Assembly: GCA_963752595.1 (NCBI GenBank)
Contig: CAVVYZ010000022.1
Coordinates: 112,043 to 176,042 of the forward strand
DNA: 64,000 nt
Direction of reading: 5' to 3'
DNA from: an uncultured delta proteobacterium
GTDB taxonomy: Bacteria > Desulfobacterota > Desulfomonilia > UBA1062
Part shown: positions 11,196-17,552 of the stretch, piece after piece
Layout of the letters: every line of letters begins with the position of its first letter
How positions within the stretch are numbered: the stretch's first letter is position 1
Notes under the pieces: model-generated
What the model was told of the DNA's origin: nothing
Databases searched by the model: none
What the model saw: the letters and a program-made list of their open reading frames with translations, nothing else
Made by a program: the position numbers and the translations under genes

Positions 11196-11582
11196 ATGAA
11201 CGATAAAGAATATTTTGACAACACGAAAGGGAAAGGGGTTCTCGCTACGGCAGATGCCCAAGGTAATGTCGATGCTGCGCTCTATGCAAAACCTTTCTTC
11301 GTCGATGAAAAGACCGTAGTGTTCATCATGGCCGACCGGTTGAGCCATGAAAACCTGAAATCAAATGTCCACGCGGCATACCTCTTCATGGAGGAGGAAA
11401 ACAGCTTGAAAGGAAGAAGGCTCTACCTGACAAAAATTCGGGAGGGAAAAAATTCCGAACTCATCGATGAGTTGAGGCGCTTGAGAAATTATGCCTCTCA
11501 GGACAGGATATATGAAGAGGATTCATATCTTGTCTATTTTTCAATCGATAAAGTAACGCCTTTGATCGGGCACGGCTTATGA
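11196..11582 (+). CDS. Pyridoxamine 5'-phosphate oxidase-like FMN-binding protein
   Basis: GVLATADAQGNVDAA...SHENLKSN pattern of split-barrel proteins. RBS GAGGAG. Confidence 0.75.
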   Translation: MNDKEYFDNTKGKGVLATADAQGNVDAALYAKPFFVDEKTVVFIMADRLSHENLKSNVHAAYLFMEEENSLKGRRLYLTKIREGKNSELIDELRRLRNYASQDRIYEEDSYLVYFSIDKVTPLIGHGL

Positions 11583-12437
11583 ACCGGCAGAACCGGATTT
11601 ATGCTTCCATAGAAGCCTGTTTACAAGGCCGGCAATGACCCCACCGAAGCCTATGATCAATGCGCAGGCGGTAAACAGCCGCCCAACAAAGGGAGCCATG
11701 CCTGCCAGGCTTATTGCCACAGTTCCGGCTAATGTTTCCAGAAGCATAGGTCTGTCCGGCATTTTCAAGGCGAGGAAGAGTTTTTTTCCTATGAGCTGGA
11801 CAACGGCGACGTAGCCGATAAAAAATGCAATGCCCACCAGAAGCATCTCGAATGGGATAAGGATGATGCCGATGATCGAAATAAGAAGCATGAACGCTAC
11901 GGGGAAGATCGAAGCACTCCCGAGAATGCCTAAAAAGAATGTCTTCAGTAAAGCGTGCTCGATGGTAAAGGAAATATATCCGATGGCGCGGGGTGCTATG
12001 GCAACCGTGATCAGGGCAAGCGCGAGAAAGCCTATAAAGGGAAAGATGCTAAACGGGGTATGAAACCCGTAGGGCATATCCCGCCAATGGTCATTCCCGG
12101 GCATGATAAATGATTTTATCCGGGAGGGATCGATAACGGTGATATCTCCGAGAACCGAAGCGCCTTGCTCTTTCACCACCGTCCCACCGAGAGAAACGAT
12201 ATTCCCTTTGATTATCGAACCCGGCCCCAGGAACACTGATCCGCCCACGGCAACTACATCATTCCTGACAAGCCCGTCCACACGGACATCACCGCCGAGC
12301 GAGACTGCCGAATCCACCTCTTGTCCCCGCTCCACGGTCGCATTCCTGCCCAGTTCGACCAGGGTATCCGCCTTTGCATATGCCGGAATGCAGATCATGC
12401 ACAGCATAACGGCCGGCCAGGTTATCATTCGCGTCAT
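11577..12437 (-). CDS. Membrane protein with N-terminal beta-helical (bactofilin-like) GG repeats and C-terminal TM helices
   Basis: Signal peptide; VSLGGDV, VAVGGSV, VSLGGTV repeats; several hydrophobic helices. Confidence 0.65.
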   Translation of the reverse strand: MTRMITWPAVMLCMICIPAYAKADTLVELGRNATVERGQEVDSAVSLGGDVRVDGLVRNDVVAVGGSVFLGPGSIIKGNIVSLGGTVVKEQGASVLGDITVIDPSRIKSFIMPGNDHWRDMPYGFHTPFSIFPFIGFLALALITVAIAPRAIGYISFTIEHALLKTFFLGILGSASIFPVAFMLLISIIGIILIPFEMLLVGIAFFIGYVAVVQLIGKKLFLALKMPDRPMLLETLAGTVAISLAGMAPFVGRLFTACALIIGFGGVIAGLVNRLLWKHKSGSAGS

Positions 12438-12519: not shown

Positions 12520-13377
12520 TTACCCTCTGGAAAACCGCCTGATATTCACTATCCGCAAGATGAGCACCACGCTCAGGTATACTGCACCGGCCAGAAGAAT
12601 GATCGTTGCTCCGGTAGGAAGTCCCGGCCCGTAACTTATAGCCAGCCCGCCTGTAGTGAATGCGGCGGAAAAAAACATGGAGAGCACCATCATGTGCCCG
12701 AGCTTCTTGGAAAAATATCCGGCTGTTGCCGGAGGCAGCGTCAGGAGTGCGATAACCATGACAATACCGACCACGCTGAGCATGAGCACAACGGTCAATG
12801 CTGTCAGGCACAGGAGCAGAAGGTAATACACCTCGACTCGCACGCCGCGCAGAAGGGCAAATTCCTCATCGAAGCAGACGGCGAGGAACTTGTTGTAGAA
12901 GATAAGGACAAGGACGATGATGAGCAGATCGAGGCCTGCCATGAGCCAGATGTCTCCCTGTGTCACCATGAGGATGTTCCCGAAGAGATAGCTCATCAGA
13001 TTCTCGCTGTATCCCGGGGTCTTGAAGATGAACATGATACCCGCCGCCATGCCGATTGCCCATACGGCACCGATCACCGTATCCTCCCGCTGCTTTGCTC
13101 GGAGGCTCACCAGGCCGATGATGACGGCGGAGAGGAGAGCTGCGATCGTTGCGCCGATGAGGGGATGAAACCACTCCCATCTCAGCACGACCTCACAGTA
13201 TCGTGCCGCACCCATCCCGCCCAGAACGCTATGGGAGATAGCTCCTGCGATATATGTGATCCTCCTGGTGACGACATAACTGCCGATTATCCCGCATGCA
13301 ACACTGGCAAGAAGGCCTGCCATAAGTGCATACCTGAGGAACGAAAAGCTCATGAGATCGGACAAGAATTCAGTCAT
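12520..13377 (-). CDS. znuB: Zn/Mn ABC transporter permease
   Basis: AISHSVLGG, YLFGNIL, FDEEFA motifs; in an operon with the ATPase and binding protein. Confidence 0.9.
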   Translation of the reverse strand: MTEFLSDLMSFSFLRYALMAGLLASVACGIIGSYVVTRRITYIAGAISHSVLGGMGAARYCEVVLRWEWFHPLIGATIAALLSAVIIGLVSLRAKQREDTVIGAVWAIGMAAGIMFIFKTPGYSENLMSYLFGNILMVTQGDIWLMAGLDLLIIVLVLIFYNKFLAVCFDEEFALLRGVRVEVYYLLLLCLTALTVVLMLSVVGIVMVIALLTLPPATAGYFSKKLGHMMVLSMFFSAAFTTGGLAISYGPGLPTGATIILLAGAVYLSVVLILRIVNIRRFSRG

Positions 13378-14128
13378 GCAGTTTCCCTTTTTTAGGATTC
13401 ATATCATGATCATGCCTGACCATCTGTACCTTTGATCCATAAATCTCATTAATTATATCTCCGGTAATATCACAGGTCGGATGGCACAGAAGCCTGCGGT
13501 TTACGCAGGCGACATTTTTCACGTGCCGTGAAACAAACCCGAGGTCATGGGTTACGAGCACGATGGTCATCTTCTGGTTCAGCTGATTGAGAAATTCGTA
13601 AAATTCCGTCTCTGCAGCGGCATCAACATTTGCCGTAGGTTCGTCGAGAAGCAGAAGATCCGGGTGTGAGACGAGTGATCTGGCTATCAGCACCCGCTGG
13701 GTCTGCCCTCCGGAAAGGTCGGCGAACGGTCGGCTCCTCACCCCATAAAGATCCACTGTTCTAAGGGCCTCCTCTGCTGACAGTTTATCAGACTTGCTGT
13801 ACCCCCCGAACCGTATGCCTGTCCCCAGACGTCCCATGAGGACGACGTCAATGACCGTTACAGGGAACAAGGGGTCAAGGGCGGTATGCTGCGGCATGTA
13901 TCCGATTCTGGTTCGTGCCTTTTCCGGAGATGTCCCGAACACGCTCACCTTGCCTTTGTCCGGTTTTACGAGGCCCAGGATGAGCTTTAAAATCGTTGTT
14001 TTTCCACCGCCGTTCGGCCCCACGATGGACAGAAAATCCTGCTCTTGGATCTTTAAGCTCACATCTTCCAGGACCGGCATGCGCCCGTAGGTAAAGGATA
14101 CCGCATCAAGTTCGATTACCGGCTTCAT
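13370..14128 (-). CDS. znuC: Zn/Mn ABC transporter ATP-binding protein
   Basis: GPNGGGKTT, LSGGQ, LLLLDEP, VTHDL; His-containing C-terminus. Confidence 0.9.
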   Translation of the reverse strand: MKPVIELDAVSFTYGRMPVLEDVSLKIQEQDFLSIVGPNGGGKTTILKLILGLVKPDKGKVSVFGTSPEKARTRIGYMPQHTALDPLFPVTVIDVVLMGRLGTGIRFGGYSKSDKLSAEEALRTVDLYGVRSRPFADLSGGQTQRVLIARSLVSHPDLLLLDEPTANVDAAAETEFYEFLNQLNQKMTIVLVTHDLGFVSRHVKNVACVNRRLLCHPTCDITGDIINEIYGSKVQMVRHDHDMNPKKGKLHD

Positions 14129-14177: not shown

Positions 14178-15053
14178 TTACTTCCGACCCGCAAGAGAGG
14201 TCTTAATCGTTTCAGCCATTTTCTTCATTTCCGTGAGATAGTTCCCGGGAAGGGGGTTGATGGGGATGACCTCCCCTCCGATCGATTGGGCAATTGCCCG
14301 GGCAGCCCTTTGAGAGAACTGGGGCTGGACAAAGATAACCTTGACGTTTTCCTTTCTCGTGCTCTCTATCAGCCTGGCAATCTGTCTGGCGCTGGGCTCT
14401 TTTCCCTCAACTTCGAAAGCTACCTGCTGCAGCCCGTAGGATTCACAGAAATACCCGAAGGCGGGGTGAAATACATAAATTTTTCTGCCTTTGACGGGTG
14501 CGAGTATTCCCGTGATCTCGGAATCGAGTTTGTCCAGGTCCTTTTGGAAAACTTCCAGATTCTTTCGATAAAATTCTCCATGAACCGGATCGATCTTCGT
14601 GAGCCCTTCGGATATATTCCGGGCAATTATCTTGACCCGCTTGGGATCAAGCCAGATATGGGGGTCAGGCCCCTGCTCGCCGGAACCCGGCGAAAAAAAG
14701 AGAATTTTGACTCCCCTGGTTGTATCGATTATGGAAAGCTGTGGAAATAGGCCGGCAATCTTCGGAACCAGGGCACGCTCGAAAGGTGCCCCGATCGTGA
14801 AGAAAACCCGTGAGCGAGCCAGTTTGGACATCTGGGCCGGAGTGGGTTCATACGTCTCATGAGACTGTCCTTCGCCCACGAGGACACTGACCTCGACGTA
14901 TTCCCCTCCTACTCTTTCCACAAAATACTTCTGCGAGATAATACTCACGAAGGCCTTGATCTTCTCCCCTCCGGCCTGAGAGGCACTCGATGGGCACGCC
15001 ATCAGGATGATGACGATCAGGCCTGTCAGAAAGGACAGTACCTTTCCCTTCAT
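14178..15053 (-). CDS. znuA: Zn ABC transporter substrate-binding protein
   Basis: SHETYEP, DPHIWLDP, FHPAFGYF cluster A-I metal-binding motifs. Confidence 0.9.
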   Translation of the reverse strand: MKGKVLSFLTGLIVIILMACPSSASQAGGEKIKAFVSIISQKYFVERVGGEYVEVSVLVGEGQSHETYEPTPAQMSKLARSRVFFTIGAPFERALVPKIAGLFPQLSIIDTTRGVKILFFSPGSGEQGPDPHIWLDPKRVKIIARNISEGLTKIDPVHGEFYRKNLEVFQKDLDKLDSEITGILAPVKGRKIYVFHPAFGYFCESYGLQQVAFEVEGKEPSARQIARLIESTRKENVKVIFVQPQFSQRAARAIAQSIGGEVIPINPLPGNYLTEMKKMAETIKTSLAGRK

Positions 15054-15082: not shown

Positions 15083-15343
15083 TTATTCATGCCCGATCTT
15101 GGTGCAGACAAGGAAACGCTCGTTGCACTGCTCGCACGTTTCGATCGAATGGGCCTCCGAGAAATCCTTCCAGTGCTGCTTCTGGTTCGGCGTCAGCGTG
15201 CCTTTCCCGTTGCACAGGGGGCAGACGCTGTCCAGTGCAGTTAGAATAGCTGAACGGATGAATTCCGATCTGTTGGGTATTCCCTGAATGATCCTGAAAA
15301 GATGCTCATCAACTTTGAAAGTTACGATCTCATGCTTTTTCAT
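15083..15343 (-). CDS. Ribbon-helix-helix (CopG-like) regulator with C-terminal Cys/His metal-binding domain
   Basis: IVTFKVD beta strand plus NRSEFIRSAI helix (RHH pattern); CPLC, H..H, CEQC, C; first gene of the znu operon. Confidence 0.75.
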   Translation of the reverse strand: MKKHEIVTFKVDEHLFRIIQGIPNRSEFIRSAILTALDSVCPLCNGKGTLTPNQKQHWKDFSEAHSIETCEQCNERFLVCTKIGHE

Positions 15344-15365
15344 GCTATACTCTCACCGGACCTTA

Positions 15366-15417
15366 GTAATACTATGTAATACTTTTGTATTAGAAACCAA
15401 GACCTGATAATTGTCAA
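15366..15417 (-). promoter_or_regulatory. sigma70 promoter with overlapping TAATAC operator array
   Basis: Minus-strand TTGACA (15417-15412)-N17-TCTAAT (15394-15389). GTAATACT at 15366 and 15376, plus inverted GTATTA at 15387 (TAATAC-N4-GTATTA). Confidence 0.65.
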
Positions 15418-15570
15418 GATCACTCATAAGATATACATAATGAATACTTTCGGTTACTTTTTAGCAGGATCGGAGCAGTGCGTTCGCGATCAATCCGGGG
15501 TGCATACCTCTCTTAAAATCGAGGGCTTCCGGTTACGCCGCCTTCACGAGGCATACTGACCGTACAATCA

Positions 15571-16521
15571 CTACTTTTTTGACGTACCCTTGAGCACCTT
15601 GAAAAAGTCGTAATCCGTACTGAGGATCAGGGTTGTATTGTCGAAAGAGGTTTGCTTATACGTCTCGAGGGTCTTGTAGAAGGAATAAAATTCCGGATCC
15701 TGATTGTAGGACTTCCCATAGATCCTGGTGACCTCGGCATCGGCCTTTCCCTTGATCTCTTCCGCTGTCTTGAAGGCCTCTGACCGGATAGCCTGGAGAT
15801 CTTTACCCATGCGCCCGGTTATCTCTGCCTTTTTTCCCTCTCCTTCGGATATCAGCTGAGCTGCCTGGTATTTCCTTTCGGAGATCATCCGGGCATACAC
15901 CCTATCTTTGACCTTTTCTCCGTAGTGTAGGCGCTTTACCTGAACATCTACGAGTCCCATGCCAAAGCTCGAGATGGATTTCGAGGCTCCCGCAAGCATC
16001 CTTCGGGCGACGGCATCCCTCCCCAGCACAACCTTTTCCCCTGGTACGGCATCATTTGTGGTAAATTTATCACCGCTATCCCAGCCGGGGACGGACTTGA
16101 TCTGATCCGACGACCTTACCAGCTCAACGAGGGGATTTGCTGCGACAGTATCCTTCGCAATCGAATCCATGATGTCATCAAGCTTGGCGTATGCCTGGTC
16201 ATAGGTTCCGATCGCCTTGATGAATGTCATCGGATCGACGATCTTCCATCTTGCAGTCACCTCTATCCGGATGATCATATTATCACGGGTTGAGATCTCG
16301 CCTGAATCTCCATTCCACCTGAGTATCCGCTTCTCGAATTTCGCAACCCTCTGGACAAGGGGAATCTTGAAATGAAGGCCGGCTTCTTTGACTGACCTTA
16401 CCGGGTTCTCGAATTGCAAGATGGCTGCCTGTTCGTATTCGCTGACCGTATAGAATGCATCGAACATGCTCAAAACCGCAAGTGCGCAAAGGAAGACGAG
16501 GATGACTTTTGCTGTTTTCAT
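15571..16521 (-). CDS. hflC: FtsH protease modulator HflC (SPFH domain)
   Basis: N-terminal TM, GLHFKIP, RMISER, YNQDPEFYSFYKTLETY. Confidence 0.9.
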   Translation of the reverse strand: MKTAKVILVFLCALAVLSMFDAFYTVSEYEQAAILQFENPVRSVKEAGLHFKIPLVQRVAKFEKRILRWNGDSGEISTRDNMIIRIEVTARWKIVDPMTFIKAIGTYDQAYAKLDDIMDSIAKDTVAANPLVELVRSSDQIKSVPGWDSGDKFTTNDAVPGEKVVLGRDAVARRMLAGASKSISSFGMGLVDVQVKRLHYGEKVKDRVYARMISERKYQAAQLISEGEGKKAEITGRMGKDLQAIRSEAFKTAEEIKGKADAEVTRIYGKSYNQDPEFYSFYKTLETYKQTSFDNTTLILSTDYDFFKVLKGTSKK

Positions 16522-17552
16522 CGCTCACCCCCTGTTCCCGGCATGCGCTTTTCCGAATCGAACAAAGGGAATACGTTTTTCTGTCTGCTGTCAATCACCT
16601 GCACCTGCCTGGCCTTGGGCAGGACCTCGCGGCAAGTCTCAAGGTAGAGCCGCTTCCGCGTTACTTCTTTGGCATTGCGGTATTCATGCAGCACATCATT
16701 GAACCGTGATGTTTCTCCTTTTGCGACATTGGCACGCTCCAGGGCATACCCCTGGGCCATATTAACGAGGCCGGCCGCCTCGCCGCGCGCCTTTGGTATT
16801 TCACGGTTATAGGCTTCCAGGGCCTGGTTGATAAGGCTTTCCTTTTCCTGCCGGGCCGCATTTACTTCATTGTAAGCATCCCTGACCTGGTCAGGAGGCA
16901 GTACATTCCGAAGCCGGACATCTACAACCTTTATTCCGCTGTCATACCTGTCGAGCGACCTCTGAAGCTCGTCTATAAAGATTCTGCTTATTTCCTCCCT
17001 GTTCTTGAGCACATAATCGAAACTCCGATCGCTTACGACCCCTCTCATGACCGATTCGCTGATATCCCGGATGGATTGAACGGAATCATGGATGCCGAGC
17101 AGGAACTTCTTCGGGTCCTGGCGCTTATAGTGGACGCTCCATTCGAGGTCGACTATGCTCAAATCACCTGTAAGCATCAATGATTCTTTCATGCTTTCCG
17201 GATCTTTCCGATATCTGTTTCTGATACCCGGCTTGCCGCTCCTGAATCCGAACGACTCGCTTTCGATCGTATCCGTGTTCACCTCGATCACTTTATCTAC
17301 TCCGAAGGGTACCTTGAGATGCGGGCCGGACAGCACAATACCTGAAAATTTCCCGAATCGCATAATTACGCCCTGGTATCCGGCAGGTACGGTATAAAAC
17401 GAAGTGAAAGCACCTCCTGCCAGAATCAGTAGCATTGTTAAAATGATGCCGATGGTCCTCCCTGTGTGCTTCCGTGCATCGGAGCCCGGATTCACAGGCA
17501 TCATCGTTTCGGTTTTATCCTGATCGCCCGGCTGTTGCGCATTCAAGGACAT
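16518..17552 (-). CDS. hflK: FtsH protease modulator HflK (SPFH domain)
   Basis: MLTGD, PPDQVRDAYNEV, IPKARGEA, VTRKRLYLET; overlaps hflC. Confidence 0.9.
   Translation of the reverse strand: MSLNAQQPGDQDKTETMMPVNPGSDARKHTGRTIGIILTMLLILAGGAFTSFYTVPAGYQGVIMRFGKFSGIVLSGPHLKVPFGVDKVIEVNTDTIESESFGFRSGKPGIRNRYRKDPESMKESLMLTGDLSIVDLEWSVHYKRQDPKKFLLGIHDSVQSIRDISESVMRGVVSDRSFDYVLKNREEISRIFIDELQRSLDRYDSGIKVVDVRLRNVLPPDQVRDAYNEVNAARQEKESLINQALEAYNREIPKARGEAAGLVNMAQGYALERANVAKGETSRFNDVLHEYRNAKEVTRKRLYLETCREVLPKARQVQVIDSRQKNVFPLFDSEKRMPGTGGER

Follow-up and report, generated by a model that had tools for sequence, protein, structure and literature searches.

A ribbon-helix-helix protein with a Cys/His domain is a candidate zinc-responsive repressor of a znuACB-type operon and of unlinked metal-uptake genes

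The small protein encoded by the first gene of a znuA-C-B-type operon in the window (the whole stretch of 64,000 nucleotides that was analysed) is predicted with fair confidence to be a zinc-activated repressor of its own operon and, through a shared upstream box, of other metal-uptake genes. Binding and repression by this regulator are highly probable from the comparisons described below, and its dependence on a metal is likely with good confidence. By sequence comparison, the protein is a member of a real, widespread and unnamed family of regulators with a defined operator and an uptake regulon. A search of the open literature found no description of the family or of its box; subscription journals, RegPrecise and supplements, which lay outside its scope, could contain a prediction.

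The regulator gene (15083..15343, minus strand; supported by ORF call, homologues and alignment) had been described in the first-pass annotation as encoding an 86-aa protein with a ribbon-helix-helix (RHH) part and a Cys/His motif, and the ORF and the motif, read from the translation as C41-P-L-C44-x12-H57-x7-H65-x4-C70-E-Q-C73-x6-C80, are exactly as claimed. Judged by its relatives this is a real gene, since all 495 candidates were homologous at E<=0.001 and six of the seven Cys/His residues are invariant. The predicted RHH part covers residues 5-39 (15227..15331, minus strand), with the strand EIVTFKV and helices 13-20 and 25-39, and was delimited from the model, the fold alignment and RHH_1 matches. 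It is followed by the Cys/His domain, residues 41-80 (15104..15223, minus strand), which was delimited from the alignment and the model and contains C41, C44, H57, H65, C70, C73 and C80.

The signals for an RHH N-terminus are weak but consistent in sequence and model. No Pfam or NCBIfam family reached its cut-off with the regulator, RHH_1 of Pfam scoring 13.9 bits against a cut-off of 20.5, and RHH_1 was matched at E<=0.01 by 63 of 119 family members. The AlphaFold model (mean pLDDT 86) has helices at 13-20, 25-39 and 52-61 and a hairpin at 65-69/76-80; its residues from about 2 to 45 align with solved RHH proteins at Z 2-3.3, low values that are expected for some 40 aligned residues. The partners include PutA52, CopASO, Arc, omega, NikR and StnY (rmsd 1.7 over 40 residues, Z 3.2); some of the structure titles name the fold, and most of the other top rows are proteins that we take to be RHH proteins. 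The arrangement that marks the superfamily, an N-terminal strand of alternating polar and hydrophobic residues and then two helices, was found, and T8-F9-K10-V11 of the strand are conserved in the family alignment. From the fold and a near-palindromic heptad in the operator, we infer an RHH dimer whose two-stranded sheet would read the major groove. No solved relative was detected by sequence at E<=0.001, nor was any Foldseek match at E<=0.001, and no separate fold match was listed for the Cys/His domain, the search having used the full-chain model only. In a protein language-model atlas all 30 matches were without a common Pfam family and were automatically named CopG family. A homodimer prediction with zinc scored 0.23 against a mark of 0.42 and was used neither for nor against the proposal.

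A profile search gathered 372 clusters at 50% identity; family members carry the NCBI label 'CopG family transcriptional regulator'. C41, C44, H57, H65, C70 and C73 are invariant in all 119 aligned close relatives, and C80 is kept in 118 of them. Among stretches from GTDB genomes, at least 524 of 598 encode a relative, and the locus counts out of 80 given below refer to the best 80 of these, which come from many phyla by record title and include many kin, so that they are not independent events. According to the record titles the loci belong to delta-proteobacteria, Planctomycetota, Spirochaetota, Zixiibacteriota, Verrucomicrobiota, Fibrobacterota and others. The gene was present in 19 of 301 genomes drawn evenly from the phylum of the window and in 11 of the 12 genomes of its genus; the distribution is patchy across families and steady within some. 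In two natural members, P0121 (185 aa) and P0146, the complete RHH-Cys/His unit occurs twice in tandem within a single polypeptide, a ready-made single-chain dimer, and one genome has the regulator in two frames (G338:C2:4250-4508).

The regulator had also been said to head a znuA-C-B operon, and this was borne out. A gene for a cluster A-I metal-binding protein of the ZnuA family (14178..15053, minus strand; PF01297, E 3e-67; closest solved structure Synechocystis ZnuA) begins 29 bases on, followed by a znuC-like ABC ATPase (13370..14128, minus strand; Pfam/NCBIfam) and a znuB-like ABC-3 permease (12520..13377, minus strand; PF00950, E 3e-69). A 286-aa membrane protein of no known family (11577..12437, minus strand) is possibly encoded by a fifth gene of the operon, and follows znuB in 13 of the 80 loci. 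On the other side, hflK-hflC-type genes lie 227 bases upstream of the regulator, with a promoter-like gap in between; they occupy 15571-17552 of the window, and hflC-type genes come before the regulator in 9 of the 80 loci.

Linkage of the homologues to metal import, as had been expected, was observed: a ZnuA/ABC-3-type importer accompanies the regulator in 73 of the 80 loci, with the full three-gene set within 4.5 kb downstream in 65 and a partial set in 8, 4 of them cut by contig ends. The linkage to COG0523 genes that was expected with it was not seen. No Fur- or DtxR-like gene was detected near the regulator in the 80 loci with three queries. Six loci have a distant paralogue as their binding protein (25-28% identical), with the regulator and the box retained, and these loci are nested among those with the usual importer in a quick tree of 85 columns with many open forks. 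One locus (L072) has the regulator and the box, and neither importer nor His-rich protein in its 1.4 kb.

In six other loci (L012:717-1334, L013, L038, L039, L043 and L079) the place of the importer behind the regulator is taken by a His-rich 205-aa membrane protein, which matches no Pfam or NCBIfam family and which, from its sequence, is a candidate metal transporter. Its family is large (7889 of 7998 scored candidates), with H12, H46, H49, H113, H144, H147 and C187-C188 invariant. The model (pLDDT 84) is all helical; its best fold match was to TRIC channels (Z 10.0, rmsd 3.2, 132 aligned residues), which is under the trusted level for helical bundles, and Foldseek gave no match at E<=0.001. 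The protein was not found in the six genomes searched with it as query, that of the window included.

The upstream regions of the 80 loci share a common box, GTAWTAC-N3-GTAWTAH, which occurred at <=2 mismatches in 78 of these 80 regions and in 5 of 1600 shuffles, the first figure being in-sample because the box was derived from the same regions. The spacer has 3 bases in 69 of the 80, and spacers of 2, 4 or 5 bases occurred in none; in two loci (L024, L048) there is no box within 250 bases of the regulator gene. In the window the box forms a predicted operator of two GTAWTAC heptads 10 bases apart (15366..15382, unstranded), placed over the likely transcription start, and at 27.5 bits it is the top site of the genome, the next scoring 17.4. 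The region 15350-15420, which had been proposed for a zinc-dependent EMSA, does contain it. A third, imperfect heptad read from the sequence (15387..15393, unstranded) overlaps the likely -10 hexamer TCTAAT (15389..15394, minus strand), which was placed by eye and is absent from the consensus-scan output. This hexamer lies 17 bases from the -35 hexamer TTGACA (15412..15417, minus strand), and the promoter of the regulator was not among the promoters listed by the sigma-70 scan. Of 78 relatives, 70 have a -35-like word ahead of the box, with gaps mostly near 5, 13-15 or 28 bases, and therefore the box would cover the spacer, the -10 or the start. Comparison gives good support for binding of the box by the regulator.

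The box was also found at genes unlinked to the regulator. In 10 genomes of one family, 23 sites with <=1 mismatch were collected, compared with 4 for the reversed pattern. Nine of them lie before the regulator, 4 before a detached znuA, 4 before an LbtU-type porin, 2 before a TonB receptor and 1 before an unrelated gene. The remaining 3 lie before a His-tailed outer-membrane protein, and both loci of this kind that were read completely have a second znuA-C-B set after it. In G107, G248 and G271 the znuB and znuA genes are detached with a box of their own: where the operon is split, the box accompanies the pieces. In one spirochaete the box stands before an AztD-like gene and before znuA, and not before the regulator. 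This recurrence before unlinked uptake genes is the strongest sign, at the level of sequence, of a trans-acting repressor of metal uptake.

Several box-marked operons (L104:2650-4710, L105, L112:4063-4500, L280 and L309) start with a small His-rich ORF with CxxC. The gene after it encodes either a TonB receptor or a His-tailed outer-membrane-like protein of 486 aa, and no Pfam or NCBIfam family was matched by the latter protein or by the small ORF. In L119 and L122 a detached, boxed znuA is followed by an ArsP_1 (PF03773) permease instead of znuCB. The box-bearing LbtU-family porins were read in L114, L115, L272 and L306; a DtxR-type gene lies divergent to two of them and feoAB precedes a third, a placement that hints at joint iron and zinc control. 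The unlinked exact sites in L106, L116 and L117 had no nameable uptake gene. The genome of the window seemingly has one target operon: site C9:62704 overlaps a TGGT-N3-ACCA word, which we take to be of FadR type, before a gene that by eye resembles one for a GntR-family regulator, and the four other next-best sites had no metal gene nearby. A looser box added 12 sites in other phyla: one belonged to the regulator itself, another, at the end of a contig, had a -35 in register, and 10 were chance-like. Controls were equally frequent, and the extra sites are at chance level.

Zinc sensing is likely. Against solved structures, the binding protein of the window matched Synechocystis ZnuA at E 1e-52 and the best manganese protein at 2e-25, so that the closest structure is that of the zinc-specific ZnuA by 27 orders of magnitude. 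In the portions of the literature consulted, zinc-specific binding proteins are described as marked by three His residues and a His-rich loop (PMC4542158). Among 58 linked binding proteins, at least 2 His residues occur in the loop in 38, and the second and third His ligands are present in 57. The first His is found in 33 and is missing at its usual place in 25, with Ala there in 20. The binding protein of the window (14178-15053) has Glu at the first His position, His one residue earlier and no His loop; it reads S-H-E-T, and its relatives S-P-H-T or S-P-A-T.

The same repressor and box might serve to sense another metal (Mn, Fe, Co or Ni), either in place of zinc or together with it, in anaerobes that need much of these metals, a reading that we regard as unlikely. 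It would account for the frequent loss of the first His ligand and for the four LbtU-type porin targets, whose position beside dtxR-type genes or feoB (feoAB) counts against zinc alone. Moreover, the TonB targets scored best against haem and siderophore receptor models, with ZnuD lower; the binding protein did slightly better against the Deinococcus MntC model than against AztC, both far below the cut-off; NicO and DUF1007 genes adjoin one locus on the other strand; and none of the 23 sites, exact or with one mismatch, preceded a COG0523 gene or a zinc-free ribosomal paralogue, a result that counts against the zinc model. Set against these observations are the distance in E-value to ZnuA, the His-rich loops, and an AztD-like partner (E 9e-29, below the cut-off) that joins two loci. 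Cys/His ligand sets, too, usually favour zinc.

Natural controls were available in a sister clade that has the same RHH part with C41, C44, C70 and C73 (profile match probability 99.9) and that was split off by one long branch with support 92 in the quick tree. Its members (P0244 and relatives; L136-L215) are of about 120-145 aa, have further CxxC pairs and in most loci stand alone and share no neighbour. No znuA or znuB was found in 80 of its metagenome loci, many of them short, nor any box at <=2 mismatches in the 73 loci with enough upstream DNA. H57, H65 and C80, near-invariant in the importer-linked clade, are present in 15, 8 and 0 of 24 sister-clade members. The sister clade thus has the Cys4 core without the importer: metal control does not follow from the architecture by itself, and the extra ligands go with the link to the importer.

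A second control came from 251 Planctomycete genomes that were scanned for the box itself. An exact match was present in 21 of them: at the regulator in 11, at pairs of an RHH antitoxin and a PIN toxin in 5, and at unrelated places in 5. The pairs (L284, L285, L298, L299 and L300) combine an RHH-type antitoxin with a TIGR00305 PIN toxin and have GTAWTAC-N3-GTAWTAC at their start; by their sequence they may point to the origin of the regulator. Since such pairs use the box, it is an RHH-type word and not a zinc signature; this supports assigning the box to the regulator and removes it as evidence for zinc.

Both controls bear on the possibility that the metal is only structural, the protein being a metal-blind autorepressor that sets the importer level, or one that responds to another signal such as thiol oxidation or a partner protein, like RHH proteins of the antitoxin type. 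The shared box of the RHH-PIN pairs and the sister clade with its Cys4 core and no metal genes speak for it, as does the resemblance of the CxxCxGxG-helix to the structural zinc site of anti-TRAP (E 0.0016) and to DnaJ (64 of 119 members). We nevertheless consider it doubtful: it is only in the importer-linked clade that the three additional ligands are fixed, and a signal-blind repressor explains poorly a box that accompanies uptake genes to unlinked places and across transporter swaps.

For the preferred reading, a zinc-activated repressor, a mechanism can be proposed by analogy with RHH proteins in general. One RHH dimer would bind each near-palindromic heptad; the two dimers, separated by one turn of the helix, would lie on the same DNA face and block RNA polymerase. 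The seven ligands would make one full four-ligand site and one site a ligand short, and zinc filling the second site, or bridging subunits, would stabilise the two dimers on the DNA. Under zinc scarcity this site would lose its metal, which would free the promoter and allow production of the importer; as the linked gene is an importer, co-repression is the expected logic. The ligands could be divided in two ways. In the first, the Cys4 set would be structural and H57, H65 and C80 would sense; in the second, C41, C44, H57 and H65 would form a C2H2-like finger and C70, C73 and C80 would sense. The first is favoured because of the comparison with the sister clade and because H65 and C80 face each other at the ends of the hairpin in the model.

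It had been put forward as a refutation that a Zur box might control the operon. The box was found to track the regulator gene across genomes and not a Fur-family gene. An exact box was present in 17 of 19 genomes with the gene, some of which may be among the 80 loci, and in 0 of 20 without it; the two carriers lacking an exact box have one with one or two mismatches at the gene. The box also stands at the gene in all 10 other gene-carrying genomes of the genus of the window and, in another family, next to it in 25 of 27 carriers. Two of the 8 non-carriers of that family also have a site, which in one case is a perfect box ahead of znuA; such a case, G119 (97% complete, with a perfect znuA box and no match to the gene), counts against the best explanation. 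At one mismatch the reversed control matched in 16 of 35 genomes, and therefore only position makes such sites meaningful. The genome of the window has two Fur-family genes, both on other contigs (L081:1432-1893 and L082:1459-2040): one is PerR-like, by eye before a rubrerythrin-like gene, and the other matches best as Fur and not clearly as Zur, so that this second, unclassified gene could be Zur. Control of the operon by a Fur-family protein (Zur) that reads the box, with the RHH gene as a passenger, is very improbable: these two genes and the occurrence of at least one Fur-family gene in 18 of the 19 RHH-gene genomes would allow it, but 17 of the 20 genomes without gene or exact box also have Fur-family genes, G107 (scored 100% complete) has the gene and two boxes with no Fur-family match, and 12 znuA loci of non-carrier genomes have no box at <=1 mismatch, 2 of them with a Fur-family gene in the regulator's slot.

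The regulator was compared with the metal sensors already described. The sections of a 2024 review of metal sensing cover ArsR, MerR, CsoR, CopY, Fur, DtxR, NikR, Rrf2, GntR, MarR, TetR and LysR, and the portions of it used here mention the ribbon-helix-helix once, for NikR (PMC11672702). In the same portions, NikR is described with an N-terminal RHH and metal-activated repression of an ABC importer, nikABCDE (PMC11672702), features that are also proposed for the regulator, and NikR chains align with the RHH part of the regulator at Z 2.2-2.5. By contrast, the metal domain of NikR, as described there (PMC11672702), is central in the chain, forms tetramers and holds nickel in a His3Cys site, and the regulator has a 40-residue Cys5/His2 domain. 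The solved NikR chains have 115-132 residues, compared with 86 aa, and no NikR family of Pfam or NCBIfam matched the regulator at E<=1. NikR represses a nickel importer, whereas the regulator is linked to a cluster A-I ZnuA/ABC-3-type importer (73/80 loci) and its box consists of two heptads 10 bases apart.

Zur resembles the regulator in its first-gene position, in its box over the promoter, in autoregulation, which is predicted for the regulator, and in a regulon that, in the portions of the source used here, includes znuABC, TonB receptors and a porin (PMC6103462). The genes marked by the box here, namely znuABC, detached znuA and znuB, an AztD-like gene, TonB receptors and porins, correspond to such a regulon, with zinc as the presumed metal. 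However, Zur has the winged-helix domain of Fur, and the regulator has no PF01475 match and a different box; COG0523 genes and zinc-free ribosomal paralogues, features of Zur regulons, account for 0 of the 23 sites.

Repressors and antitoxins of the CopG/Arc/omega type share the fold and, as the omega-DNA structure 2bnw has it in its title, the use of repeated short heptads. The regulator differs from them in its Cys/His domain and its unlinked targets, and whereas RHH antitoxins have the toxin directly downstream, the next gene by identity is here an importer gene or a membrane protein in 79 of the 80 loci. The zinc sites of anti-TRAP and DnaJ have, like the regulator, a CxxCxGxG followed by a helix; the regulator differs in having it in single copy, with a second CxxC without GxG, H57, H65 and C80 in addition, and a fused DNA-binding domain, and it scored 17.6 bits against DnaJ (cut-off 32.7) and 11.6 bits against anti-TRAP (cut-off 32).

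The regulator would work like NikR and Zur, yet belongs to neither by the features that mark them. The box indicates how zinc import may be controlled where no Zur adjoins znuABC, and it predicts candidate uptake proteins of unknown function; moreover, with a small protein and an operator defined to the base, the claim is testable by a reporter in E. coli and would suit biosensor work. We hold it slightly better than even that this is a new structural family of metal sensors beyond the review's twelve: a minimal zinc co-repressor of 85 residues, derived from an antitoxin-type RHH protein by retention of the operator and acquisition of a sensing site within a zinc finger, which would have replaced Zur in lineages of eight or more phyla, the bacteria being mostly uncultured, and whose box would mark new zinc-uptake proteins, including the large unnamed family of His/Cys-rich membrane proteins and the His-tailed outer-membrane protein. 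If true, a zinc-sensing RHH protein adds a family to the known metal sensors and, besides NikR, a second and independent coupling of a metal to the RHH fold.
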